From the IMG/VR virus record IMGVR_UViG_3300035232_000745: a stretch of DNA of 64,000 nucleotides; one strand, given 5' to 3'. Origin of the DNA: a virus. Shown one piece after another: positions 3,499 through 15,144 of this stretch. The notes beneath the pieces are model-generated. The model made no database searches. It saw nothing but the letters and a program-made list of their open reading frames with translations, and was not told the DNA's origin. The position numbers were made by a program, and so were the translations under genes. Each line of letters begins with the position of its first letter. Within the stretch, counting starts at the first letter, position 1.

Positions 3499-3753
3499 AT
3501 GAAACTAGTTAAAGTACAACGCGAAATTCTTACAAACGCAGCAGATTCTTTTGCAAAGCACGGTGTTGAAAAGCCAATTCACGTAATGTCAGTTAACTCA
3601 AAAAATGATATCGATAACTTTCCTAAATCTTATGCTACATATTGCAAAAAGATGGAACTACTAATCGAAGCTGGTTTGATTTCTCGTGAAATTAATAATG
3701 ACGGTTACGCTTATATGACTCAAAAAGGTTATGAGTTTACAGCTACTATCTAA
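3499..3753 (+). CDS. hypothetical early protein (possible winged helix)
   Basis: follows early promoter; LIEAGLISR...YMTQKG resembles a wHTH end. Confidence 0.6.
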   Translation: MKLVKVQREILTNAADSFAKHGVEKPIHVMSVNSKNDIDNFPKSYATYCKKMELLIEAGLISREINNDGYAYMTQKGYEFTATI

Positions 3754-4034
3754 ACCGCGAAACTTTCTCCGCAACCGCACGAAGCTGTTGCATTTGGATT
3801 GACTACTTTGAGGTAACTTCCTCCCAGTTCCTCGACGTAGTCAATCGTACATCCAAAAATAAACATTTCTGCCATAGGATCAAGCCACAGATTTGCCACG
3901 TGTGGTTCTTTTTCTGTTGTTCCCCACTCATATTGAAATCCAGAACAACCACCGCCTTTTACATTAAGCGATACGTTCGGCTTGCCAGCTTTTTTTAAGT
4001 AAGCTTTTGCGTTATCTGTGACTTGAATTTTCAT
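3750..4034 (-). CDS. iscA: A-type Fe-S cluster carrier (IscA/HesB)
   Basis: GGGCSGFQY and CGCGESF motifs. Confidence 0.92.
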   Translation of the reverse strand: MKIQVTDNAKAYLKKAGKPNVSLNVKGGGCSGFQYEWGTTEKEPHVANLWLDPMAEMFIFGCTIDYVEELGGSYLKVVNPNATASCGCGESFAV

Positions 4035-4193
4035 TTACTCAGACTTCCAAATAGTCCAAGCACCCCAAGCGATAGCAACTCCTGCCGCAATCTTAGCTAA
4101 TGGTGCCATGAATAAAACCATGAGGCCAAGAGCAACTAATGCTCCGCCATCCCACGTTGTTCTTTCTTTAAGTCTGTTTTTAATCCAGTTCAT
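4035..4193 (-). CDS. small two-TM membrane protein (52 aa, not in ORF track)
   Basis: MNWIKNRLKERTTWDGGALVALG...; couples to both neighbouring ORFs. Confidence 0.7.
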   Translation of the reverse strand: MNWIKNRLKERTTWDGGALVALGLMVLFMAPLAKIAAGVAIAWGAWTIWKSE

Positions 4194-4501
4194 TTTTCTT
4201 TCCCTCCCAGGATCTTTACGCCGGCTTTTGCTTCGACGGCATTCAATCGACGTTCTAAATCGTCGATCTTTTTGGTTATTTTGGGATATTTTTTACGCCA
4301 AGCATCTTCAGGCTGTTCTAGCCAAGTAAGACCCCAACGTTCAACCAAATAATCAACAGCGTTGTCGATCTTTGCATATCCCCATAAACCAATACGGGTG
4401 GTACTTAGATAAGCTAAACAAATAGCACCTAAAATACTACCACCAATACTAGTATAAATCCAAAGACGATTAGTCGCCATATCAGTAATTATTTCAATCA
4501 T
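4190..4501 (-). CDS. hypothetical membrane protein
   Basis: N-terminal TM helix, coupled in operon. Confidence 0.7.
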   Translation of the reverse strand: MIEIITDMATNRLWIYTSIGGSILGAICLAYLSTTRIGLWGYAKIDNAVDYLVERWGLTWLEQPEDAWRKKYPKITKKIDDLERRLNAVEAKAGVKILGGKEK

Positions 4502-5228
4502 GTTCGTTCTCCCTAGTGTATTTGCAATAGTGAGTCATACTATGATCATAAGCACCGTCGAAAGGCATTCCTTTTTTCAAGGCTCTCCAGCGACCGCGCC
4601 ACTTATCTTTAATACGCTGCCATCTTGTGCACTTTCTAATGTTTCCGTAGTAATTGATATATCTCGGAGAACTGTGGTGTCTGTATCCCAACAGAGCGAA
4701 AGGTACGCAAGTGACCATGTCATTATTATTAACATGCCTATAATGGGCAGTTTTAATTGAGTTAACAAATTTCTTAGTCCCTGTTCTTGGTGATCCGTAA
4801 GTGTAAAGTGCATCAACCTTATCTTGCATTCTACTCGTTGCAATAGTAGCCATTGCTGCACCTAATGAATGTCCACATACGAAAAACGATTTACCGTCTA
4901 ATTTCATTTTATTGAGAGCAACATTAAGTTGTTCCCATATTTTATTTACTTCTTCCTGAAATCCGTTATGCACAAGTCCTGACCCATTATGGGCTCTGTC
5001 TGGCAATGCGTTTAGATCAGCTTTAATATCAGATAATTCTTTAGGTTCTGTTCCCCTAAAACATAATACAACTTCTTCTTTATTTGAAACGATATGCATT
5101 TGTGCACCATCGTGTTCAATAAATTTGTGCGATGTGTAACCAAGCTTCTTATAATGCGGTTTAGCTTCTTTCGCATCCATGTAAGCTATTTGTGCACACT
5201 GTGCCATTATACTACATTTATTTATCAT
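4494..5228 (-). CDS. class 3 lipase (alpha/beta hydrolase)
   Basis: FRGT, GHSLG nucleophile elbow, YGSPR, D..VP, C-terminal DH. Confidence 0.9.
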   Translation of the reverse strand: MINKCSIMAQCAQIAYMDAKEAKPHYKKLGYTSHKFIEHDGAQMHIVSNKEEVVLCFRGTEPKELSDIKADLNALPDRAHNGSGLVHNGFQEEVNKIWEQLNVALNKMKLDGKSFFVCGHSLGAAMATIATSRMQDKVDALYTYGSPRTGTKKFVNSIKTAHYRHVNNNDMVTCVPFALLGYRHHSSPRYINYYGNIRKCTRWQRIKDKWRGRWRALKKGMPFDGAYDHSMTHYCKYTRENEHD

Positions 5229-5421
5229 TTTTCCTATCCTTTAAAATATCTTTCATTACATTAGAAGCAGTATTCGTAAATAATCTTGGAGCTAAGCCAT
5301 GTATTAATAATACAGGAACTAATAATTGTAATCTTGCAGCGGTTTTAAAAGCATAACACATATGCTCTAAACCTGTCTCTCCAGCTTTTTCTAAGTGTAA
5401 TTTGCACTCTTTACTTAACAT
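5218..5421 (-). CDS. small conserved protein (DUF6356-like)
   Basis: HL..GET..EH...LIHGL.P.LF..TAS pattern. Confidence 0.6.
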   Translation of the reverse strand: MLSKECKLHLEKAGETGLEHMCYAFKTAARLQLLVPVLLIHGLAPRLFTNTASNVMKDILKDRKNDK

Positions 5422-5733
5422 TTATTTTCCTTTCATAGAATTCAGTTTTGCTTTTAACGCGTCAGCGCTTCCCGCCTTTTTGGCCTGTAGTTCGGATTTG
5501 GAGTTATCCCGTCGTAACTTACTACTGAGCAATACTTTACCTTCTTGCGAACTATTATCGGAATCGTAGGCAGTCTTAGCACTAACCTGTTTTCTAAGTT
5601 CTGTTGTTCTTTCTGAAAGCTCTCTAATTCTTGTTGCGAAATATCTTTCAACCATATTCTCCTTAAAACGTCGGTCGACTTCATTTTCAATGTATTCTTT
5701 ACATAACCAGTCAAATAAAAATCGTTTTATCAT
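5422..5733 (-). CDS. hypothetical protein
   Basis: start taken at MIKRF (ATGA overlap with cyclase stop). Confidence 0.6.
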   Translation of the reverse strand: MIKRFLFDWLCKEYIENEVDRRFKENMVERYFATRIRELSERTTELRKQVSAKTAYDSDNSSQEGKVLLSSKLRRDNSKSELQAKKAGSADALKAKLNSMKGK

Positions 5734-7775
5734 TTGCTTGTAGCTATAAACACACCATTCCAATCTTTAGGAAGGTTTTGAGTTTTCATAAATTTACAGC
5801 GCTCTTTCCACATATCGTAATATCCATCCATTTTATTATCAAAGTGCCCTTGCAATATTTCACATAGTGCTATTGCATCATCAAATTTCTGAGCTTGATA
5901 AGCTTCATACATTTCTTCGTGTTTTTCTTTAGGTTTTTTCCAAACATCTCTTACATCATCTAGTGCTGTGTAAATACTTAAACCAACACTCTTACCTTTA
6001 ACTTGTAAATCATCAATTTTAAGATAAAAGAAATCGTTCTTAGTAAGTTCGTAAGTTGCTTCTCCTATTAGAAGAACTTGCCCGTATTCTTTACATTTTG
6101 ATTCGACTCTAGCTGCGGTGCTGACGCTGTCCCCCAACACATCATAGCTATGTCTTTTTGTTGATCCCATTTCTCCAATGTAACCAAGTCCGGTATTAAT
6201 ACCCGCGCCCATACCGACGGGAGGTCTTCCTTCAGGAATGATAATATCTTCATTAAATTTCTCCACTGCTTTAAGCATTTTAAATGCTGTCGTTACTGAG
6301 GTAAAGGCATGATTTTCATCATCAATCGGAGCATTATGTATGTGCATTGAAGCATCACCGATATATTTAATTATCATACCATTAGCATCTAATACAGGTT
6401 CTGTAATAGCATCCATATAACCGTTCATTATTCTAGTCAATCCTTTAACGTCATCTCCGAAACTTTCACCTAAAGGAGTAAAGCCTCGCAAATCACTAAA
6501 AACGATTGATACGTCTCTTTTAACGCCTTCTTTAATTAATGATGGATTTTCCTGTAACATCTTAACAACTGTTGGTGATGCATAACCAGCAAATTGTTTT
6601 TTGATTTCTTGTTTCTGTAAAAATTCGTCTACAAATTTTACAATATACCGTAAACTGCCAACGAAGAATAACATAACAGAAATAGTAAGGCCGTCAACAA
6701 GAATATTTGAAGTTTGAAATACATAGATTGATCCTCCTATAAATCCGCCTATTGTTAATACGAATGCTCCGATACCTATAAAAGTCCAATAAGATAAGCC
6801 TATTATTAATAATCCTGCTATAAGTAATGCAGCTAACTCTCCCCAAGCTTTTGCATCGGCGTGACGCGTAATGTTTGACTCATTAAATACAGTACCTAAC
6901 ATTGCTGCTTGCATTTGATGTGGAAATACCGATCCCATAGCTGTAGCAATTGGTTGTGTAATACCAGCTGCTGTTGGGCCAACAAAAACTATCGATCCAT
7001 CTAAATTGTCTGGTAAATCAGTAATGCTATATTCCATATAACCTTGTGACCAATCAACCCAAACTTCTCCTGCTTCGTTTGTTGGTATGATACCAAATTG
7101 TGGTATTCTTAATTTATCAACACCAAGAGGTGAAAGTTTAATTTGGAAACTCGGATCTCCAGATAATACACGAAGTACTTCCATTGTAACGTTTGGATAT
7201 AGAGTACCACCGCTTTCAAAGACTAAAGGTGCACGTCTTGTAACACCGTCTATTTCTGGAAAGGTGTTGATGATTCCTGACCCCATTGCATTATTTTCAA
7301 GGCTTGGTACGTTAGCGATGATCCCAGGTATACTTGGAATAAGAGACATATAATCGCTATTAATAATAGAGGCTCCCGGATTAATTGGTTCATTTTTGTT
7401 CTCCTCAGAGCCTAACATTGTTAAAATTACTGGTACTTGCTGCATAGTAAGAGCAAGGTCTTGATCTTCACCAGATCTATCTTCTTCACTCATTAATACA
7501 TTGAATACCACGAGGCCTGCGCCTCTGTTATATAAATCTATAATAAAATCTGAATATGTAGCACGCGGAAATGGCCATTGACCGTATTTTTCTAAAGCTG
7601 ATCTGTCTATGTTTACGGTATAAATGTTATTTTGAACTGGTTCTTGATTTACAATTAACTGATCAAAATATCTTAATCTTAGACTTTCTATTAAGGCTGG
7701 ATTACTTGCGTGCAACCATGCGAATAAGCATAATAATATTATACTCCATGCTGGAGAGAATAACAGTTTTTTCAT
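5730..7775 (-). CDS. CHASE2-domain class III adenylate/guanylate cyclase
   Basis: CHASE2 (GQWPFPR, DGVTRRAPL), 3 TM helices, FSDLRGFT, KYIGDA, GINTG, YDVLGD. Confidence 0.93.
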   Translation of the reverse strand: MKKLLFSPAWSIILLCLFAWLHASNPALIESLRLRYFDQLIVNQEPVQNNIYTVNIDRSALEKYGQWPFPRATYSDFIIDLYNRGAGLVVFNVLMSEEDRSGEDQDLALTMQQVPVILTMLGSEENKNEPINPGASIINSDYMSLIPSIPGIIANVPSLENNAMGSGIINTFPEIDGVTRRAPLVFESGGTLYPNVTMEVLRVLSGDPSFQIKLSPLGVDKLRIPQFGIIPTNEAGEVWVDWSQGYMEYSITDLPDNLDGSIVFVGPTAAGITQPIATAMGSVFPHQMQAAMLGTVFNESNITRHADAKAWGELAALLIAGLLIIGLSYWTFIGIGAFVLTIGGFIGGSIYVFQTSNILVDGLTISVMLFFVGSLRYIVKFVDEFLQKQEIKKQFAGYASPTVVKMLQENPSLIKEGVKRDVSIVFSDLRGFTPLGESFGDDVKGLTRIMNGYMDAITEPVLDANGMIIKYIGDASMHIHNAPIDDENHAFTSVTTAFKMLKAVEKFNEDIIIPEGRPPVGMGAGINTGLGYIGEMGSTKRHSYDVLGDSVSTAARVESKCKEYGQVLLIGEATYELTKNDFFYLKIDDLQVKGKSVGLSIYTALDDVRDVWKKPKEKHEEMYEAYQAQKFDDAIALCEILQGHFDNKMDGYYDMWKERCKFMKTQNLPKDWNGVFIATSK

Positions 7776-7900
7776 TTTTTAGCCTCATCCTCTTTACAAT
7801 CACATCTATAACAGACGTCATTAACACACTCTTGGCAGGACGAAGCATAACAATGGCATCCGTGACCACATTTTTGGCATGTTCTTTTCGGTCCTTGCAC
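7772..7900 (-). CDS. Cys-rich metallothionein-like peptide (42 aa, not in ORF track)
   Basis: GGAG SD, GTG start, 9 Cys and 2 His, ATGA overlap with cyclase. Confidence 0.7.
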   Translation of the reverse strand: MQGPKRTCQKCGHGCHCYASSCQECVNDVCYRCDCKEDEAKK

Positions 7901-7913
7901 TTTTATAACTCCG

Positions 7914-7945
7914 TATAAATAATACATATTCTTAAACTATTTATA
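7914..7945. promoter_or_regulatory. pair of oppositely oriented T4-type late promoters
   Basis: TATAAATA on + at 7914-21 and on - at 7938-45. Confidence 0.7.
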
Positions 7946-8087
7946 ATGAAACGCTTTGGATTAGGATTAGATCATAGAACATATCGAAGATATCTATTCT
8001 GGATGTGAGCCAGTAGGTAGAGCAGAACCTTCACGATCACACATCGTAAGATTTTGCTTCGGTACTTCACATGCGCATTGTACATTA

Positions 8088-8747
8088 ATGTGTTTATTAT
8101 CTGAAGCATTTATTAAAGCACAATTATTAGCTGAAGCAGGAGATGTTGAACCTTACCACATTTCTATTGTTTGGCAGTTAGAATTAGATTTCAAAAGAAA
8201 AGAAGAAAACGCAGAGTCTGCTTACGAAATTATGAAATTTTTTGTAAATAATATGCTTCCTCCTAAGAATGGAGCTATAATTAGCATATATAAAACTAAA
8301 CCTTCTTTTATTCAAACAGCGTGGAAATTAACTCAAGTCTGGCCGTTCAAAAAACAATGGACGGGAGGCGGTGGTTTTGTGACAGTACACAAATCAGAAG
8401 CTTTAATGTCTAAGACTAGATATCCAGGTATTTTAACAACTGAAGAAAATATAATTCCAGAAATAGAAACAAAGTACGATACGAAATTTATAGATTATAC
8501 AGTACCTATTAAAACTGTTTATGATTTATTATTATTAACAGATAAGCACTATAGTTACAGCGGAGGAACAGCTTATACCTCAGCTATGACTGGAACTCCT
8601 ACTGAGATTTGGACGCATGATCCTAATGATCCCAACACACCTTGGGGTTATATGGGTATATCGCCAAATAAAATTACACAATATAATAAAGGGATCTATC
8701 AAGGTCCTATTGAATATATTAAATTATATGGAGACAACAATGATTGA
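8088..8747 (+). CDS. hypothetical protein (possibly glycosyltransferase-like)
   Basis: 219-aa ORF; frame open upstream to 7971; YSGGTAY..AM.GTP resembles a GT9-type C-terminus. Confidence 0.55.
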   Translation: MCLLSEAFIKAQLLAEAGDVEPYHISIVWQLELDFKRKEENAESAYEIMKFFVNNMLPPKNGAIISIYKTKPSFIQTAWKLTQVWPFKKQWTGGGGFVTVHKSEALMSKTRYPGILTTEENIIPEIETKYDTKFIDYTVPIKTVYDLLLLTDKHYSYSGGTAYTSAMTGTPTEIWTHDPNDPNTPWGYMGISPNKITQYNKGIYQGPIEYIKLYGDNND

Positions 8748-9426
8748 TTGTATTATACCAGCGAGATTGGAATCTACAAGATTTCCAAGTAAAGTATTAG
8801 CCGAAGTTAAAGGTAAGTCTGTATTACAGCATTGTGTTGATAACGCAAATAGCGCAAAGGATATTAGACGCGTTTGGATTGCTTCGAACTGCGTATCGTT
8901 ATTAGACCCAGAAGGAGGATTACTTACTGGTGATCATCATGAAACGTGCACATCACGAGTATCACAGGCTGCGTGGGATGTAAAAGCTGATTATATTGTT
9001 AATTTGCAAAGCGACGAACCTTGTGTTACTGGTGATATGATAGACGACATGATTAAATATATGTTTCAGAAAAATGCAAGAGTGGTTCAATGTTGTTATC
9101 CATTGACAGATGAAGAAAGAGGCAATATAAACGTAGTTAAGGCTGTTATCAGTAATGGCAAAATCATTTACTTAACACGAACACCTGATCGTGAATTAAT
9201 GCATAGTCCAAACCTTGTTGGAATTAACGGTTTATATTGTTATGATATTTCTACAATAAGATCGTTTAATTCTTACGATCAGGAATTAACTACGCGACAC
9301 AAAGGATTAGATACTTTGGCATTCATAGGTATTGTAGACGTGTATCCCTTCATGATCGAAGAGAGAACACCAGCAGTAGACATTCCTTCTGATATAGAAT
9401 TAGTGGAGAAATATCTTGATAGATGA
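8740..9426 (+). CDS. kdsB: CMP-KDO synthetase-like cytidylyltransferase
   Basis: IIPARLESTRFPSK, NLQSDEP, VDIPSD; start at MIDC after GGAG. Confidence 0.82.
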   Translation: MIDCIIPARLESTRFPSKVLAEVKGKSVLQHCVDNANSAKDIRRVWIASNCVSLLDPEGGLLTGDHHETCTSRVSQAAWDVKADYIVNLQSDEPCVTGDMIDDMIKYMFQKNARVVQCCYPLTDEERGNINVVKAVISNGKIIYLTRTPDRELMHSPNLVGINGLYCYDISTIRSFNSYDQELTTRHKGLDTLAFIGIVDVYPFMIEERTPAVDIPSDIELVEKYLDR

Positions 9427-9859
9427 TAGAATAATTAAATACATATCGCATGCTCCAAGAGTCGCGTTTATTGGTAATGGCGGAAATCTTGCTATAGCAC
9501 AACACGGAGCTTCTGATATGACAAGACACTTAAATAAGCATTGTTTTGCTCCAGATTCTGTTCACTTAACTGCTCTTGGAGGTGATAGTAATTGGCATGA
9601 AAAATGGATTAATCAATACGCAATATTTTCTGATTGTATAATCGGTATTACTACTCGTAAAGACTCTCCTATTATCAAAGGTCTTAGAGAACTTGGAGGA
9701 ATTTTACCCAATAGAGTAGTAATAGCACCGAAAAAAATTAGAGGCATTGATACTATTGTTGTTAATGAAACGACTTATCACGAATTTGAAATACAAGCTT
9801 TAAGCACAATTTATAAAATTATTGAACAGTGCGGAGCCAAATTACCTAGTATTGATTGA
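9416..9859 (+). CDS. SIS-domain sugar-phosphate isomerase (GmhA-like)
   Basis: IGNGGNLAIAQH motif. Confidence 0.65.
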   Translation: MIDDRIIKYISHAPRVAFIGNGGNLAIAQHGASDMTRHLNKHCFAPDSVHLTALGGDSNWHEKWINQYAIFSDCIIGITTRKDSPIIKGLRELGGILPNRVVIAPKKIRGIDTIVVNETTYHEFEIQALSTIYKIIEQCGAKLPSID

Positions 9860-10183
9860 TCCGAGCGGTATATCTATTCCAATTACAATACCACCGCCAT
9901 TGCCTTCTTGACCGTATGTTAAATAGTATTTGTCTTTGTATAAAAGTCTTGCAGCAGGAATAACTGGGCCATACACATAACCAGAAACGATTACTGTTTC
10001 TAAAGTTAGATTTTCAGTTAAATCTGATGATCTTCCAAAATAAAAGCTAGGCTTCTTAATTGAGTTGTAATAAACGCCCATTGTTAAATTTTCATAATTC
10101 GCAGTAAATTTTGGGTGGTAATTACTATAATCATTTTCAAAGCCGACATGCAGAGATAAAGCTAAACCTAATACAAATTCCAT
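9842..10183 (-). CDS. hypothetical protein, small beta-rich exported or outer-membrane candidate
   Basis: hydrophobic N-terminus, aromatic alternating strands; last gene of curli operon. Confidence 0.5.
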   Translation of the reverse strand: MEFVLGLALSLHVGFENDYSNYHPKFTANYENLTMGVYYNSIKKPSFYFGRSSDLTENLTLETVIVSGYVYGPVIPAARLLYKDKYYLTYGQEGNGGGIVIGIDIPLGSINTR

Positions 10184-11020
10184 TTAATTATGTTGCTCAA
10201 CACTTACAACACAACCGTTTGGGTTTGTGCAAACGCCAGATAGAGTAAATGATTTAGAAGAGGTGTCGGTTTGTTGACTAACTGTTACATTATAGGCAGG
10301 ACCGTATATGCTTTCTACACTAATGCTTGCTGAGGCAGAATTCATTCCACGTTGGTTTAAATCAATTACATTATAATTTCCTGACAACTCAATATCAGCA
10401 GTTTTTTGTCCGCCATTACCACGCTGATAAGTTGTAACATCATTCCCAGTACCTGAAATATCAAGGTCTAAAATATGCTTTTGATTTCCTCTTTGAGTCA
10501 TTTCAACATCATTACTATTACCAGAAATTTCTGCAGTTAATTCATGCCTACCATAACCTGTACTTTGTTGATCTGTCTGTGCTGATTTAATATCGTTATA
10601 ATTTCCGCTAATTGTAATTGTTGCGGTATGGTCACCACCTTCTGATAAATCAGTTGTACCATCAGAATGTTTACCTTGCCATACCGTTAAGTCGTTATTA
10701 TCACCTGTTACCATTGCAGTAATCATTCCGCTGTCACCGCCACCGCCTTGATAGAAATCTATGTTGTTGTTATCTCCATCTAACATTCCTGCAATACCAT
10801 GATACTGACCGATCTGCACCATATCAACTGTATTACTATCACCTTCAATACCTGTAGTCTGTCCACTTATACCAGTAATATAATTCTGACTACCATCTTG
10901 TGTGATAGTCAACGTAAAATTATCGCCTGATTGATACATATAAACTTCATTTGGTCCACTATTTGATTTGGATGATGTCAATAGTATTATTACCAACGCC
11001 AAGACGATAATCCCAAACAT
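10184..11020 (-). CDS. curlin-like beta-solenoid protein 2 (CsgB-like)
   Basis: signal peptide MFGIIVLAL; repeated G.N...Q.G units (ISGNSNDVEMTQRG etc.). Confidence 0.75.
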   Translation of the reverse strand: MFGIIVLALVIILLTSSKSNSGPNEVYMYQSGDNFTLTITQDGSQNYITGISGQTTGIEGDSNTVDMVQIGQYHGIAGMLDGDNNNIDFYQGGGGDSGMITAMVTGDNNDLTVWQGKHSDGTTDLSEGGDHTATITISGNYNDIKSAQTDQQSTGYGRHELTAEISGNSNDVEMTQRGNQKHILDLDISGTGNDVTTYQRGNGGQKTADIELSGNYNVIDLNQRGMNSASASISVESIYGPAYNVTVSQQTDTSSKSFTLSGVCTNPNGCVVSVEQHN

Positions 11021-12089
11021 ATTCGTCTTGTTGTTGAATATTAATCGTATATCCATATTGTTGCTCCACATATATTCTTAAATGATGGTAATAACCGGTG
11101 TCGTCTCTTTCAAAAACCCAACTAGGGTCTTCTCTATTTAAAGTAATTCTTGTTTGAGGATCATAACCCTCTTCAACAAAATTAAAAAACTCTTTATTCT
11201 GAGCATCTAATTCTGACATTAATCTGCGCATTAGCGCAATGTTTAATTGTTCAATCATATCATGTAACAGTTCGCCAAGATAATAATCACTATCTCTTAA
11301 ATCAAATTCTGTTAACCATATATCTTTAATACTCTCTTCTAATATGTCCATATTCAAACCGTCAAAATTTAAGAAATCTATATCTAGGAAATCTGTCATT
11401 TGTTCCAATGGTTGGCCATCTTCTTCAAATAAAGGTTTTTTCTTTCTTAAAATCAAAAGGTTCGTTATATCGCTTTCATCAAGCGCTAAGAACATTGGTT
11501 TAGTTGGTTTTGACCACCTGCTTTTTATTATTGTTGCCTGAAATGCTTTGTTCATAATAACGAAACCTGTATCAGACTCAACTGAAATTTCACCAGTTAC
11601 ACAATTTGTTTTTCCAAGTTGGTCAATGGAACAAGAAGGTAACAGCGTTACCATAGTCCCACCTGCTTCATCAACGACCATAACAAAATCAGTACCTAGT
11701 ACACCTATCGTTGCTGACGGTGTTTTGATACTGACGTTTCTTCGGCTATTCTTCGCGATTGCTCCAGATGCATAACGTATTGTTCCCAATGTCGCACGTA
11801 ATCCCAACTTCCCAGTCCCGGCATTTGGGTCATAAACAAAATCATCAATTACTAACCTCGCATGCTCAGTGATGTCGACTCGTGTTTCATCAACAAAGTC
11901 GATACGCATTCTGCCTTTTGCGGTGACGGCGGTATCCATGGGTTGCACCCCAATACCTTCCCCGCCGTCAATAACATTTCTACCACGCTCAAGTACGCCA
12001 GATCCCGAAAAAGACCCTATTTCACCTGCATCGCCAAAGCATAAGCTCGGTGTCAACAGAATGGCAATGAAGCCAATAATATTCCACAT
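10959..12089 (-). CDS. secreted FecR-domain protein
   Basis: signal peptide; D...T..GR..I.F.D.T, TPSATIGVLGTDF FecR signature. Confidence 0.85.
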   Translation of the reverse strand: MWNIIGFIAILLTPSLCFGDAGEIGSFSGSGVLERGRNVIDGGEGIGVQPMDTAVTAKGRMRIDFVDETRVDITEHARLVIDDFVYDPNAGTGKLGLRATLGTIRYASGAIAKNSRRNVSIKTPSATIGVLGTDFVMVVDEAGGTMVTLLPSCSIDQLGKTNCVTGEISVESDTGFVIMNKAFQATIIKSRWSKPTKPMFLALDESDITNLLILRKKKPLFEEDGQPLEQMTDFLDIDFLNFDGLNMDILEESIKDIWLTEFDLRDSDYYLGELLHDMIEQLNIALMRRLMSELDAQNKEFFNFVEEGYDPQTRITLNREDPSWVFERDDTGYYHHLRIYVEQQYGYTINIQQQDEYVWDYRLGVGNNTIDIIQIK

Positions 12090-12091
12090 TT

Positions 12092-12835
12092 TTAATCAGA
12101 TTGTGTAATTTGAACATTTTGACTATCTCCTGAAAAAGTAGCATCTACTTTGTTATCGTATATGCCGCTTTGTATTATAATATAATCTGACCCGCCACCA
12201 GTAATTGTTAAGTCAACAGTATGACCTGCGACATCACCATTTCCTGTGCTGTCAATTGCAATCAAGTTACCTTCTGAGTCAGCTTGAACATCGTATGTTA
12301 AATGCGTACGATTTCCTGCTCCTGCTGTAACACCAGTGCTTGAGTTATTTGATACAACTGTAATATTAGCATCTGTACCGTCTATATCAGCATAAACTCC
12401 TGAACTGTTACCAGTGATTGTAAAATTAGCAACTAAATCTTCTGTATCAGCACTTTCACCGATATAGATTTTAAAGTTGTTGTCATCACCTGAAACACCT
12501 ATGTTTAAAGTAACATCTTCACAATTTACTCCACTCGTAGAATCACAAGTTAAGTCAACTGTGTTGTCATCACCCGTAAATGTCCAAGTACCAGTGTAGG
12601 TATTACCTTTAATGATAGCGTCAATTTGGTTATAATCACCAGTTTGAGTGATGTTAAACGTCATTGCGTCACCATCTAATGTGGCATCAGTAGTACTGTC
12701 ACCAAATTCGTTGTCTTGTCCGTCTTGGACTATATCTAAATCTAATGTATCACCAGATTGTGTAATATAAATGTCGTTTGCAAGTGTAGGCGATGCAAAC
12801 AACAGTGCCATAACAAAGAGAATAATCTGTTTCAT
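12092..12835 (-). CDS. curlin-like beta-solenoid protein 1 (CsgA-like)
   Basis: signal peptide ending TLA; I.Q.G..N repeats, very acidic. Confidence 0.75.
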   Translation of the reverse strand: MKQIILFVMALLFASPTLANDIYITQSGDTLDLDIVQDGQDNEFGDSTTDATLDGDAMTFNITQTGDYNQIDAIIKGNTYTGTWTFTGDDNTVDLTCDSTSGVNCEDVTLNIGVSGDDNNFKIYIGESADTEDLVANFTITGNSSGVYADIDGTDANITVVSNNSSTGVTAGAGNRTHLTYDVQADSEGNLIAIDSTGNGDVAGHTVDLTITGGGSDYIIIQSGIYDNKVDATFSGDSQNVQITQSD

Positions 12836-12847
12836 TCCCTATCTCCG

Positions 12848-13651
12848 TTAATTGATTTCTTTAAAATTCCATAATTCCCTCTTGACTCCTTCTGTCACTA
12901 ATTCAATAACCCCTTGTTCAATAGCTGCTCTTACAGCATAATTTACGGGCTCATTTACAGAATAGCCGTTTTCAATCTCTACATTTTCACGACCTAAATC
13001 TATAAATTTAAATATATCAGCCGATGAACGATAACTCGCTATAGATTTCTCTGTAGCAATACTCATTAAAACTTTTCCACTGCTAACGCTTACTAGTCTC
13101 ATAACTATCGTAACAGTGTCTACTCGATACTCAGTTGAGGCGCCTACACCCAGGAACCTTGCTCCAGCACCGCCAGCTGCGGTATCAGAGTCGTAACCAA
13201 CAACTCCACCTTCTAACAATAACCCTGCAAATAACATAGGTTGTAATGGAGTTGGACCGCTTTCTTCTCCTTTTTCATAAACTTCTCTTGTTTGTCTTAT
13301 AAGTTGACGTTCTTTAATTAAATTATCGATACCAACTCTTTCAACTACTTCAAACCAAGATCCGTTACCGACATCTTGCAATGCTTTAATCACCCATACC
13401 TCTGCGCCTTGCGTAACAGCAGAAGATAAAGATGAATTTGAACTTGATTTTCTTTGTCCTGTTTTATCATTAAAAGCGTATACCGCAATAGTTATTTTAG
13501 GACCGCCTAACTCTGGTACAGCAAGCAGTCTTTCATCAATAGGACTTACTGATAAAGTTGGCGAATCATCAAGCCCGCGTAATACACTTATACTTCCAGG
13601 AGCTGCACAAGCACCTAATAAAAGAAATAAAAATAAAGGCAGTAATCTCAT
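12848..13651 (-). CDS. csgG: curli secretion channel lipoprotein
   Basis: lipobox LGAC; F.DKTGQRK, AVTQGA, WFEVVER..IDNLIKERQLIR. Confidence 0.93.
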   Translation of the reverse strand: MRLLPLFLFLLLGACAAPGSISVLRGLDDSPTLSVSPIDERLLAVPELGGPKITIAVYAFNDKTGQRKSSSNSSLSSAVTQGAEVWVIKALQDVGNGSWFEVVERVGIDNLIKERQLIRQTREVYEKGEESGPTPLQPMLFAGLLLEGGVVGYDSDTAAGGAGARFLGVGASTEYRVDTVTIVMRLVSVSSGKVLMSIATEKSIASYRSSADIFKFIDLGRENVEIENGYSVNEPVNYAVRAAIEQGVIELVTEGVKRELWNFKEIN

Positions 13652-14115
13652 TAAAAATTGAACTCCCCAGCACCAGGTATTGTGATTTCAGTCACACTAC
13701 CATCTTCTTCAGTAACAGTTAACGTAATAGAACCTGTTACTGGATCTCTTAACCAAGCAATTGTATTATCTTCAAGTGATGTTGACCCACTATTCGAACA
13801 CGCATCACCGCAATCAGCAAACATGGAGTCAACCATTTGCTTTGATAGTGTTGCATAAATTCTTGATTCTACGTTACGAAGAAATTTTGCTAGAGTAGTA
13901 TTTTCTGCTTCTCTTTCAAGTTCTTCTGCAATTCGCTTTTGCTCATCTCTGTAATCTTCTTTGCGATTATGAGAAAGTTGTTCAATGGATAAAACGTGCG
14001 TTGAATACCCATTTCCATAGTGAAACGCCGGAGATTTAAATCCCCATACTAATTCACTCGCCGCGCTGTTGTTTGTCAGGAACAGTATCGCCATCGCTAG
14101 CATTAAATGTTTCAT
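13651..14115 (-). CDS. csgF: curli assembly protein
   Basis: signal peptide then SELVWGFKSPAF.GNG; directly upstream of csgG. Confidence 0.85.
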   Translation of the reverse strand: MKHLMLAMAILFLTNNSAASELVWGFKSPAFHYGNGYSTHVLSIEQLSHNRKEDYRDEQKRIAEELEREAENTTLAKFLRNVESRIYATLSKQMVDSMFADCGDACSNSGSTSLEDNTIAWLRDPVTGSITLTVTEEDGSVTEITIPGAGEFNF

Positions 14116-14437
14116 TATCTTCTCCGGTTGAGTTAAACGCTTTATTTCCCGATTGATATTCAGCAACTAATCTATGTAATTCATCAGTACGTTTCGGATT
14201 TAGTTTAGATCTATATTCCAAAACCATTGATAGTTTGCTATTTAGTCTAATCAGATCATTATCTAACATTCTAACGCGATCAACTAGTTTAATTAAAGTA
14301 AACATAGCTTCACCCAGGACCGGATCAATTACCTCCGTAACCCATTTCCATATAAAGAATATGAAGTAGCCCATACCAACTGCTGATACGATAGGAAAAC
14401 CGTATTCACTTATTGCACCGGCTATATCTAATTCCAT
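14054..14437 (-). CDS. GFPI-motif single-TM coiled-coil protein (YvrJ/holin-like), paralogue B
   Basis: YGFPIV TM, then DRVRMLDNDLIRL. Confidence 0.7.
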   Translation of the reverse strand: MELDIAGAISEYGFPIVSAVGMGYFIFFIWKWVTEVIDPVLGEAMFTLIKLVDRVRMLDNDLIRLNSKLSMVLEYRSKLNPKRTDELHRLVAEYQSGNKAFNSTGEDNETFNASDGDTVPDKQQRGE

Positions 14438-14455
14438 TTTTATTCCTTTTAATTT

Positions 14456-14635
14456 CTAATCAGAAATTTTTACTAACCAACCTTTATCGTCTACGCGAAA
14501 GGTATCGCCAGGTTTATAAAGCCAATGATCTTTTGGCGAGCCGTCCTTTTGGACGCCCATGACTTCACCTGGCCAATCTCCTTCAACTCTAAAGTTTGTT
14601 CCAGCTTGGCTTATATTGTAATCCATCCAAATCAT
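14456..14635 (-). CDS. small hypothetical protein (59 aa, not in ORF track)
   Basis: MIWMDYNISQ...GDTFRVDDKGWLVKI; TAATG coupling to upstream ORF. Confidence 0.7.
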   Translation of the reverse strand: MIWMDYNISQAGTNFRVEGDWPGEVMGVQKDGSPKDHWLYKPGDTFRVDDKGWLVKISD

Positions 14636-14841
14636 TAAGCTATTTCCTCTTTTACGAAATTCTCAATTAATTTGTTAGGATTTCCAATATGTTCAAAGTA
14701 ACCATTGGGACCTACTCTAAATTCGTCTCCGATATTTAGTTTCACGTCATCAATAACGAAAAACTTATCATCTAAGTTCTTTTCATTGAGAATGCGAAAA
14801 CCATTCTTAAATTTTGTTAATACTAAATCTTTCCAAAACAT
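14635..14841 (-). CDS. small hypothetical protein, paralogue of 14456-14635
   Basis: MFW...GDEFRVGPNGYFEHI. Confidence 0.7.
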   Translation of the reverse strand: MFWKDLVLTKFKNGFRILNEKNLDDKFFVIDDVKLNIGDEFRVGPNGYFEHIGNPNKLIENFVKEEIA

Positions 14842-15119
14842 TAATCTCTCCTTGCATCATCTTTACCCTCATTTGCAGCAATACGATCTATATTTGGTCT
14901 AACATTTAAAGCATAGCTCAATAAGGCATCAATTTTCACTAAATCATTATTCATAGTTTGAACTCTGTTGTCCAAACCTGTCATTATATTTTTAAGAGAA
15001 TTTACGGTGTCTGTAACACTAGCTAATATAAACTTTAGTGTAATAAATACAAAAACGCCAGCAGCTAAAGCGCCAGCTATAGGAAAGCCTACATCACCAA
15101 TTAAAGATAAAAACTCCAT
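14841..15119 (-). CDS. GFPI-motif single-TM coiled-coil protein, paralogue A
   Basis: VGFPIA TM, then DNRVQTMNNDLVKI. Confidence 0.7.
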   Translation of the reverse strand: MEFLSLIGDVGFPIAGALAAGVFVFITLKFILASVTDTVNSLKNIMTGLDNRVQTMNNDLVKIDALLSYALNVRPNIDRIAANEGKDDARRD

Positions 15120-15136
15120 ACATTCTCCTCACAGTT

Positions 15137-15144
15137 TATTTATA
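15137..15144 (-). promoter_or_regulatory. T4-type late promoter of the curli operon
   Basis: TATAAATA on - strand just upstream of GAGGAG SD. Confidence 0.75.

Follow-up and report, generated by a model that had tools for sequence, protein, structure and literature searches.

We analyzed a stretch of viral DNA of 64,000 nucleotides (IMG/VR virus record IMGVR_UViG_3300035232_000745, here called the window) and found that positions 3750-15144 encode a curli-type secretion channel, two curlin-like proteins, a FecR-fold protein and a nucleotide cyclase. This region is almost certainly the known pelagiphage cassette that joins a type VIII secretion system (T8SS), FecR and an adenylate cyclase (AC), carried by an uncultured T4-type marine phage resembling HTVC008M and Melnitz. 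The gene set and the T8SS-FecR-AC linkage are already published and are not new. What is added here is the identification of the cyclase as a CHASE2 receptor, the pairing of such cyclases with FecR-domain proteins in bacteria, a reading of the phage block as a chimera, the co-variation of FecR with CsgG and CsgF, and a serine in the place of a catalytic asparagine of the cyclase. A signalling pathway across the cell envelope that would connect these proteins is, in our judgement, an even call.

A T8SS-FecR-AC cassette and its relatives

Zaragoza-Solas et al. 2020 reported csgF and csgG with associated genes in pelagimyophages and proposed that they serve 'sibling capture' (PMC7029224), and Buchholz et al. 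found curli genes in Melnitz and proposed a pore that times lysis (PMC9004378). In pelagic podophages and myophages (marine T4-like HTVC008M-type or HTVC023P-type genomes), Wittmers et al. 2022 described the order CsgF, CsgG, CsgA/B, FecR, a second CsgA/B and AC, with one or two genes labelled 'histidine kinase' (HK) in front of the block (PMC9599517). They read FecR as an iron regulator, found the viral T8SS region to be widespread, with transcripts in metatranscriptomes and a share of 6-8% in some SAR11 and OM43 phage genomes, and inferred both transfer between phage families and an alphaproteobacterial origin (PMC9599517). A first, sequence-only reading of the window had noted earlier reports of csgF and csgG in marine SAR11-type myophages; the full cassette is in print (PMC9599517). 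CHASE2 and the bacterial pairing of FecR with CHASE2 are mentioned in none of these papers (PMC9599517, PMC7029224, PMC9004378), and a full-text search for CHASE2, curli and phage returned no paper.

The core genes of the cassette in the window are:

13651..14115, minus strand: csgF homologue with signal peptide; ATG at 14115 preferred over TTG at 14166 (Pfam CsgF, E 4.8e-12, above the cut-off, on open reading frame (ORF) 13651-14166)
12848..13651, minus strand: CsgG lipoprotein, outer-membrane secretion channel (Pfam CsgG, E 8.6e-50)
12092..12835, minus strand: curlin-like 1, secreted beta-solenoid with signal peptide (paralogy, Curlin_rpt matches of orthologues, model)
10959..12089, minus strand: FecR-fold periplasmic protein, 376 aa (Pfam FecR, E 3.5e-9)
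10184..11071, minus strand: curlin-like 2, secreted curlin-repeat protein; likely start near 11020, which gives a signal peptide (Pfam Curlin_rpt, E 3.9e-9)
9842..10183, minus strand: b113, small beta-rich protein (phrog_3600, E 6e-6)
7772..7900, minus strand: Cys-rich peptide of 42 aa with 9 Cys, GTG start at 7900 (sequence)
5730..7775, minus strand: CHASE2 receptor with class III nucleotide cyclase, 681 aa (Pfam CHASE2, E 8e-34; Guanylate_cyc, E 5e-18)

All genes that the sequence-only reading had named were present on the minus strand where it had put them, with small corrections of start codons from Pfam and the sequence. They form two runs in which neighbouring genes abut or overlap by a few bases; two overlaps are longer, at about 60 nt each, between csgF and the upstream gene A2 (described below) and between FecR and curlin-like 2. 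Export signals were visible in the sequences, with a lipobox on CsgG, signal peptides on CsgF, FecR and both curlin-like proteins, and transmembrane (TM) segments on the cyclase. The cassette proteins are intact, and they stay together in phages as divergent as 39% identity.

To place the window, we searched 50,697 phage records. A megablast search with the region gave no match, and tblastn with CsgG identified Pelagibacter phage HTVC008M (49% identity) and four Methylophilales Melnitz phages (47%) as the nearest cultured relatives. FecR was 42% identical to that of the window in both, and the cyclase was 35% identical in HTVC008M and 49% in Melnitz. In their deposited annotation, csgF, csgG, curlin, FecR, curlin and cyclase are contiguous, so the published cassette (PMC9599517; HTVC008M, KC465899; Melnitz, MZ577097) has the same genes in the same order as the window and likewise sits in a Kyanoviridae-like T4-type phage. 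The window differs from it in several respects. Its cassette is split by a 1.8-kb insert on the opposite strand, which is common to five IMG/VR contigs, and the cyclase lies 2.4 kb further on. The cyclase half is led by a second late-promoter-like motif and the Cys-rich peptide, and it is followed by a tail that encodes a coiled-coil protein, a DUF6356 protein, a lipase, two membrane proteins and an IscA-like protein.

We then collected relatives by scanning IMG/VR with the cyclase, which retrieved 80 contigs at 39-89% identity, and called and clustered their ORFs. FecR and curli genes were located within 12 kb of the cyclase in 55 out of 55 viral loci with at least 6 kb of upstream sequence, in a sample that was found through the cyclase and so cannot show how often curli and FecR genes occur without it, and whose loci are not independent, many being close relatives. 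This agrees with the adjacency of csgFG, FecR and the CHASE2 cyclase across phages that the sequence-only reading had expected. On the same strand and upstream of the cyclase, FecR was found in 54 and CsgG in 53 of these loci. The exceptions were a locus at a contig end (L005) and one in which the whole curli/FecR block is inverted and located on the other side of the cyclase (L051).

Pairwise protein distances were compared across 42 non-redundant loci. The distances of CsgG, CsgF and FecR were strongly correlated among themselves (r 0.89-0.92). Although the two halves of the cassette always occurred together in the sample, their alleles have been reshuffled, with FecR remaining on the curli side.

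A scan of genome contigs with the cyclase alignment returned only phage-like contigs binned into metagenome-assembled genomes (MAGs). One genome bin, probably a MAG labelled Rhodobacteraceae and including a contig with a 98% identical cyclase, contained five phage-type CsgG genes, 48-99% identical to that of the window, on separate contigs. This suggested that several pelagimyophage contigs were apparently binned into that MAG.

A 9.4-kb stretch that includes the insert was recovered almost whole in about ten marine metagenome runs from different studies and in one viral-fraction metagenome. Its recurrence across marine runs suggested that the split arrangement is a real and widespread phage genotype. 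Among the matches listed, no RNA run contained the region. A run labelled as metatranscriptomic cDNA contained contigs that were 99-100% identical over the first three lead genes (A1-x68-x59, listed below), A2, the csgF/csgG junction and the lipase; this material is probably DNA, and we therefore draw no conclusion on expression from it.

Curli, FecR and cyclase proteins and their bacterial counterparts

The phage block resembles the bacterial curli system in having homologues of CsgG and CsgF and secreted substrates with curlin repeats. CsgG matched the E. coli CsgG structures over residues 29-264 (E 7.6e-48), and its lipobox, LLGAC, is visible in the sequence. The Tyr, Asn and Phe of the E. 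coli constriction loop aligned with Ser, Ser and Leu in a Ser-rich loop of the window's CsgG (residues about 67-76). This suggested that the eyelet of the phage CsgG pore likely differs from that of E. coli. A phmmer search with CsgF against the sequences in the Protein Data Bank (PDB) did not reach E. coli CsgF.

In place of CsgA and CsgB, the phage encodes two large and divergent curlin-like proteins of about 230-290 aa. Curlin-like 1 has no Pfam match itself; it was found to be a paralogue of curlin-like 2 (BLASTP, 29% identity, E 6e-13), and 27 of its 34 orthologues from related phages matched Curlin_rpt. Its AlphaFold model is a beta-solenoid with a predicted local distance difference test score (pLDDT) of 84. 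A Foldseek search of the model against the PDB gave nothing significant. In a structure search independent of Foldseek, the top match was the Pontibacter CsgA 8c50 (Z 17.1, 187 residues, 24% identity, root-mean-square deviation (rmsd) 8.7), which was tied in Z with SufD-type beta-helices. A Sec signal peptide was present at the start of both curlin-like proteins and of all 34 orthologues inspected.

As the sequence-only reading had noted, no CsgE, CsgC or CsgD is recognizable, and Pfam found no such domain in any scanned ORF of 3750-15144. These three proteins are also absent from alphaproteobacterial curli systems (PMC9599517). The phage block adds FecR, the cyclase and the lead genes A1 and A2 to the curli components. 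The protein b113, which follows curlin-like 2, belongs to a cluster of 25 ORFs among the related loci. Its nearest named cluster in the ESM Atlas (score 0.92) carries PagP on 21% of its members, and we treat this PagP-like resemblance only as a lead.

The FecR-fold protein begins with a cleavable signal peptide, and its Pfam domain starts near residue 50. In its model (pLDDT 77), a confident beta domain (about 22-200) is followed by an acidic disordered linker (about 205-270), a helix and a small C-terminal beta domain (308-374). Residues 49-212 matched the periplasmic cell-surface-signalling domain of PupR (6ovk; Z 15.5, rmsd 2.7, 134 residues), and the model also matched BDI_1681 (4m0n; Z 14.4). 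Residues 18-112 matched the N-terminal anchoring domain of MpIBP, the Marinomonas ice-binding RTX adhesin (5ix9; Z 11.0, 73 of 76 residues, 22% identity). The best 120 homologues found with the protein were all phage-like metagenomic proteins.

The phage protein shares its periplasmic domain fold with the FecR/PupR anti-sigma regulators of FecIRA systems, but it lacks their cytoplasmic anti-sigma domain and TM helix and has a signal peptide in their place. Pfam identified no sigma-factor or TonB-receptor domain in the region. Because the protein has neither an anti-sigma domain nor a TM helix, and no extracytoplasmic function (ECF) sigma factor or TonB-dependent transducer is encoded nearby, we rejected the published reading of FecR as an iron-citrate regulator.

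The last residues of FecR fit the pattern G-x-x-N-x-I-x-I-x-Q seen in the curlin repeats of its neighbours, with a Q374 that does not vary among 32 sequences. In a single hhalign comparison with the curlin-like 1 family, the C-termini were aligned in register with a probability of 6% (E 0.0057). A homology between the FecR C-terminus and curlin would be a lead, and the match is too weak for us to claim it.

The cyclase is a CHASE2 receptor: its periplasmic CHASE2 domain is flanked by one N-terminal TM segment and a multi-TM segment, after which comes the output domain. CHASE2 spans residues 14-326 and the cyclase domain residues 419-596, and the hydrophobic segments are located at about 5-25 (one, N-terminal) and 325-395 (multi-TM). 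By an alignment of ten viral copies and HMMER comparison with solved cyclases, the protein keeps D428 and D474 (metal binding), K470 and D545 (substrate) and R556 (transition state). More distant viral cyclases have Lys/Thr together with Asn and Arg, as does P. aeruginosa CyaB (3r5g).

The gene of the Cys-rich peptide is coupled to that of the cyclase by an ATGA overlap, which indicates translational coupling. In relatives, homologues of the peptide were found either beside the cyclase or inside the A1-A2 group, between x59 and A2. These two positions suggested that the peptide moves within the module.

The sequence-only reading had pointed out that CHASE2 cyclases of alphaproteobacteria often have FecR-domain partners, and a search of 401 alphaproteobacterial genomes with the phage FecR, cyclase and CsgG bore this out. 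The phage FecR matched 137 genomes, through the FecR domain only (residues about 50-205). The cyclase matched 132 genomes, largely the same ones, at E 1e-40 or better, and is 30-38% identical to the alphaproteobacterial CHASE2 cyclases. Among the matches listed, which hold about half of the FecR matches and therefore give a lower bound, at least 30 FecR places in at least 29 genomes were within 10 kb of a cyclase place, at least 25 of them within 3 kb.

We inspected 20 bacterial regions, chosen for having FecR near the cyclase, which illustrate the pairing and are no test of it. The FecR gene adjoined the cyclase or was one gene away in 15 of the 20; in the rest it was masked by crude ORF calling in GC-rich DNA. 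The phage FecR domain was 30-45% identical to the FecR neighbours of alphaproteobacterial CHASE2 cyclases. A recurrent third gene encoded an outer-membrane barrel of the TPR and SlipAM type (Slam, DUF560), and in one case (L135) a TolC-like OEP. In these bacteria the FecR domain is often the N-terminal part of a protein of 900-3400 aa. In several regions (L131, L135, L137, L146 and L147) the FecR domain beside the CHASE2 cyclase was the N-terminus of a protein of 1700-3400 aa; the only one of these scanned with Pfam, from L137, carries Ig and cadherin-like repeats. Together with the 5ix9 match, the long bacterial proteins suggested that FecR-like domains may be periplasmic retention modules of surface adhesins.

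Related pairings have been described experimentally. In S. meliloti, cAMP synthesis by the CHASE2 cyclases CyaK, CyaD1 and CyaD2 in response to a plant signal depends on NsrA, a protein of the outer membrane (PMC7529298, PMC13001267), and in Burkholderia and Pseudomonas an operon pairs a FecR protein with a CHASE2 kinase (PMC5192318). The phage cassette resembles NsrA-CyaK type systems and FecR-domain/CHASE2 clusters (PMC9239204, PMC5192318) in encoding an inner-membrane CHASE2 receptor together with a FecR-domain envelope protein and an outer-membrane component. It differs from them in that its FecR is a soluble periplasmic protein with neither a barrel nor long adhesin repeats. Its outer-membrane partner would be the curli pore rather than a FecR-barrel, TPR-Slam or TolC protein, CsgG and CsgF being the only candidates.

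Curli genes and FecR/CHASE2 genes were apart in the bacteria sampled. This suggested that the phage block is a chimera of two bacterial systems, which agrees with a statement by Wittmers et al. (PMC9599517). The published labels of FecR as an iron regulator and of the lead genes as kinases are not supported by the evidence here. The recognition of CHASE2 and of its usual FecR-domain neighbour turns the label 'regulatory' into a concrete model of envelope signalling.

A proposed trans-envelope signalling pathway and its rival explanations

In the mechanism that we propose, and whose chances we put at about even by analogy with the bacterial systems, the phage would insert the CsgG/CsgF channel into the outer membrane of the host late in infection and export the two curlin-repeat beta-solenoid proteins. 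The FecR-fold protein would stay in the periplasm, associated with the curli apparatus, and it could be attached to the secreted solenoids or the pore through its curlin-like C-terminal strand and its long acidic linker. From FecR, the state of the surface apparatus would be passed on to the inner-membrane cyclase at its periplasmic CHASE2 domain, and the cyclase would change the cytoplasmic level of cyclic AMP (cAMP) or of another cyclic nucleotide (cNMP). This logic would be copied from the bacterial pairs of FecR-domain proteins and CHASE2 cyclases and from NsrA-CyaK, with the curli pore replacing the bacterial outer-membrane partner. According to the cited papers the known hosts, SAR11 and OM43, do not have curli genes, so that an infected cell acquires a new surface apparatus and, possibly, a new input through a second messenger; these hosts are among the most abundant cells in the ocean.

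The sequence-only reading had placed all of these genes in one trans-envelope pathway. The part of this claim that stands is that curli, FecR and cyclase genes occur together; a specific link of FecR to CHASE2 has weak support at the allele level, and the inclusion of the lipase and iscA is not supported. Its suggestion that cNMP tunes the timing of lysis was not supported and is pure speculation, lysis timing having been proposed before for Melnitz (PMC9004378). Its other suggestion, that infected cells aggregate with fresh hosts, is the 'sibling capture' already in the literature (PMC7029224), and no clumping was reported in Melnitz cultures (PMC9004378).

A number of results weigh against the signalling mechanism. 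The distances of FecR and of the CHASE2 domain were correlated only at r 0.56 across the 42 loci, which gives no indication that FecR and CHASE2 have specifically co-evolved; that FecR follows the curli proteins instead could be due to closer physical linkage. The cyclase gene itself is mosaic, the distances of its CHASE2 and catalytic halves being correlated at r 0.41 (42 loci), and two loci (L047 and L055) join a catalytic half like that of the window to a divergent CHASE2 half. The allele-level data therefore do not favour signalling over a role of FecR as a T8SS accessory. The FecR model, at 376 aa, contains no outer-membrane barrel, unlike what is reported for NsrA, which, going by the description of such proteins in PMC9239204, probably carries a FecR domain itself.

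Further points on the same side concern the cyclase and its output. Five of the six catalytic residues are kept, and the window and its clade have Ser552 in the position of the transition-state Asn, which sets this cyclase apart from that of the published cassette; its predicted activity may thus be low or altered. Five related viral records, of which one is rated complete, were searched for the CAP-type receptor domain cNMP_binding (PF00027) alone, and none of them contained it; no Crp/Clr-type receptor of the kind known from NsrA-CyaK type systems was thus found in these records. Cassettes of podophages often have no cyclase, so FecR can work without one (PMC9599517). A true CsgG orthologue (E below 1e-50) was found in seven alphaproteobacterial genomes; within 10 kb of csgG none of them has a homologue of FecR or of the cyclase, and five of the seven had no FecR match at all. 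A coupling of the T8SS with FecR/CHASE2 therefore has no bacterial model.

A rival explanation that we consider possible and somewhat doubtful is that two separate functions share one hypervariable island. Curli and FecR would then make surface fibres or a modified pore for aggregation or a block of superinfection, with FecR as a T8SS accessory (a stand-in for CsgE, a nucleator or an anchor), while the cyclase would independently reprogram the host. The co-variation of FecR with CsgG and CsgF rather than with CHASE2 fits this explanation, as do the conserved curlin-like motif at the FecR C-terminus, the lack of a CsgE in the scanned ORFs and the published cassettes with FecR and no AC (PMC9599517). 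The halves are moreover separated by a variable cargo slot of 0-6 kb, and each has its own promoter-like motif in the window. Against two separate functions, curli/FecR and the cyclase were within 12 kb of each other in every one of the 55 loci, across rearrangements and even an inversion (L051). FecR-domain genes are standard neighbours of bacterial CHASE2 cyclases, which is hard to call coincidence, and bacterial curli loci work without FecR.

A more detailed version of the signalling mechanism, which we regard as unlikely as a whole, is a chimeric sensor. Here an ancestral bacterial FecR/CHASE2 pair would have lost its outer-membrane partner (a FecR-barrel, TPR-Slam or TolC-anchored adhesin) and been grafted onto the curli pore, with the curlin-like C-terminal strand and acidic linker of FecR connecting it through CsgG/CsgF to the secreted curlin solenoids. 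Events at the fibres outside the cell (cell contact, a superinfecting phage or fibre load) would be reported to the cyclase, and cNMP would set the timing of lysis or the activity of a neighbouring hydrolase.

Still less probable, in our view, is that CsgG and CsgF are a phage-controlled envelope pore that times lysis or passes molecules, as proposed for Melnitz (PMC9004378), with A1 and A2 as holin/antiholin-like partners and the curlins secondary. The altered constriction of CsgG and the late expression inferred for the block would suit such a pore, and A1 and A2, with their TM-helix and coiled-coil architecture, are better conserved than any other gene of the neighbourhood and confined to phages that carry the cassette. 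A1 also has a match to the holin PHROG 4898 at E 0.0011, which is far below any safe threshold and not enough to call A1 and A2 holins; there is no endolysin in the region. The premise that curlin subunits are missing is wrong, since two secreted curlin-repeat proteins are conserved. An outer-membrane pore alone would not depolarize the inner membrane, and FecR and the cyclase would be left unexplained.

A last rival, which is extremely improbable, makes the curlin-like beta-solenoids fibres of the virion, unrelated to the rest of the block. Their genes are apparently late, in relatives they adjoin the structural module, and tail fibres often have beta-helical folds. The Sec signal peptide on both proteins and all 34 orthologues is unlike virion proteins, which are assembled in the cytoplasm. 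The Curlin_rpt matches also argue against virion fibres, as does the finding, from our assessment of this rival, that the curlin-like genes always lie between csgG and FecR in the related loci.

Promoter-like motifs, lead genes and variable cargo

The remaining features of the region are:

15137..15144, minus strand: T4-type late-promoter-like TATAAATA, 17 nt upstream of A1
14841..15119, minus strand: A1, bitopic membrane protein of 92 aa (phrog_18771, E 6.6e-30)
14635..14841, minus strand: x68, small soluble protein, motif-related to x59 (conserved cluster of 17 ORFs in related loci)
14456..14635, minus strand: x59, small soluble protein that travels with A1/A2 (cluster of 41 ORFs)
14054..14437, minus strand: A2, bitopic membrane protein of 127 aa (phrog_18771, E 1.4e-27)
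8088..9859, plus strand: insert with a 219-aa ORF of no assigned family, a KdsB-like gene (8728-9426) and a GmhA/SIS-like fragment (9416-9859) (Pfam, NCBIfam)
7938..7945, minus strand: second late-promoter-like TATAAATA, 37 nt upstream of the GTG at 7900
5422..5733, minus strand: coiled-coil protein 3' of the cyclase, likely start at 5733 (sequence; cluster of 16 ORFs in relatives)
5218..5421, minus strand: DUF6356 small protein, lineage-specific accessory (Pfam, E 5.7e-11; 5 ORFs in relatives)
4494..5228, minus strand: class 3 lipase with GHSLG nucleophile elbow and no signal peptide (Pfam Lipase_3, E 9e-22)
4190-4501 and 4035-4193, minus strand: two small membrane proteins, tightly packed with the lipase
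3750..4034, minus strand: IscA/ErpA-like Fe-S carrier (Pfam Fe-S_biosyn, E 4.8e-12; NCBIfam ErpA, E 6.5e-20, below its cut-off)

The sequence-only reading had called the motifs at 15137-44 and 7938-45 late promoters. The motif and its position were borne out, and the promoter role, like late expression, is inferred by analogy with T4 late promoters. The window contains 14 copies of TATAAATA against 11.6 expected, a count not above chance. The placement, unlike the count, is informative: 9 of the 14 copies are intergenic and located 10-76 nt (mostly 30-35 nt) upstream of a co-oriented ORF, and the motif also precedes A1 in six related loci (L003, L007, L011, L021, L046 and L074) and in Melnitz. 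The distance of 37 nt favours the GTG at 7900 as the start of the Cys-rich peptide. Two copies stand back to back on opposite strands, at 7914-7921 (plus) and 7938-7945 (minus). The plus-strand copy is 166 nt upstream of the 219-aa ORF that leads the KdsB-like/SIS-like insert, which suggested that the insert may own a divergent late promoter. Sigma-70 promoter-like sites were at chance level, and the twelve terminator-like sites were all inside ORFs.

The lead genes form two pairs of paralogues, A1/A2 and x68/x59. A1 and A2 each have one N-terminal TM helix followed by a coiled coil, and neither has a Pfam match at E 0.01 or better. No other genes of the neighbourhood are as well conserved, and 40 of the 41 loci with both flanks have them, in some loci upstream of csgF and in others downstream of the cyclase in convergent orientation. 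Among the 50,697 phage records, A1 occurred only in Melnitz (x4) and HTVC008M (x2), the same T4-like records that carry CsgG. In the ESM Atlas it fell into viral clusters only, the nearest named cluster being YvrJ (0.89). From their position and number, A1 and A2 are probably the 'HK' genes of Wittmers et al. (PMC9599517). A1 has no His, the only His of A2 is in its variable tail, and neither protein has a kinase domain; we therefore rejected the assignment as histidine kinases.

The insert encodes a KdsB-like cytidylyltransferase (Pfam CTP_transf_3, E 7e-22; NCBIfam KdsB subfamily, E 2.6e-39, below the cut-off) and a fragment with a weak GmhA match (NCBIfam, E 4e-4). L005-L008 and L024 carry all three insert genes in the corresponding position, with identities of 50-68%. 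In the related loci, up to about 6 kb separated the cyclase from the last curli-side gene, some loci having no gap, and the cargo in between varied by lineage. The kdsB/SIS insert thus fills a variable cargo slot, and with these genes on the opposite strand the cassette runs as two tightly packed units. Other cargo of the slot included an LpxH-like phosphoesterase with a GT4 glycosyltransferase and a RimK ATP-grasp enzyme (in the L058-L069 range: L058, L060 and L067-L069) and, with L026 and L029-L032 among the examples, a CHAP peptidase as well as a secreted protein of 612 aa that matched no family. Where the cargo could be identified, it mostly acts on the cell envelope. A Metallophos protein that adjoins the cyclase in some relatives (c116) was considered as a cAMP phosphodiesterase and rejected, its best NCBIfam matches being to LpxH, below the cut-off.

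The sequence-only reading had also counted the lipase, the small membrane proteins and iscA in the same pathway. They did not prove to be core: the lipase was present in 17 of 83 related stretches (82 loci and the window), of which 13 have it downstream of the cyclase and 4 upstream of the module. It is directly downstream of the cyclase in the clade of the window and about 3 kb upstream of A1 in L037-L042. In another lineage (L009, L012-L020, L027 and L028 among 13 loci), an Abhydrolase_6 hydrolase directly follows the cyclase, and it has only the GHSxG elbow in common with the Lipase_3 protein of the window. Two unrelated hydrolases at one position are curious, but the lipase is not thereby core. 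The lipase, the small membrane proteins and the IscA-like gene are lineage-specific passengers or, at most, optional outputs.

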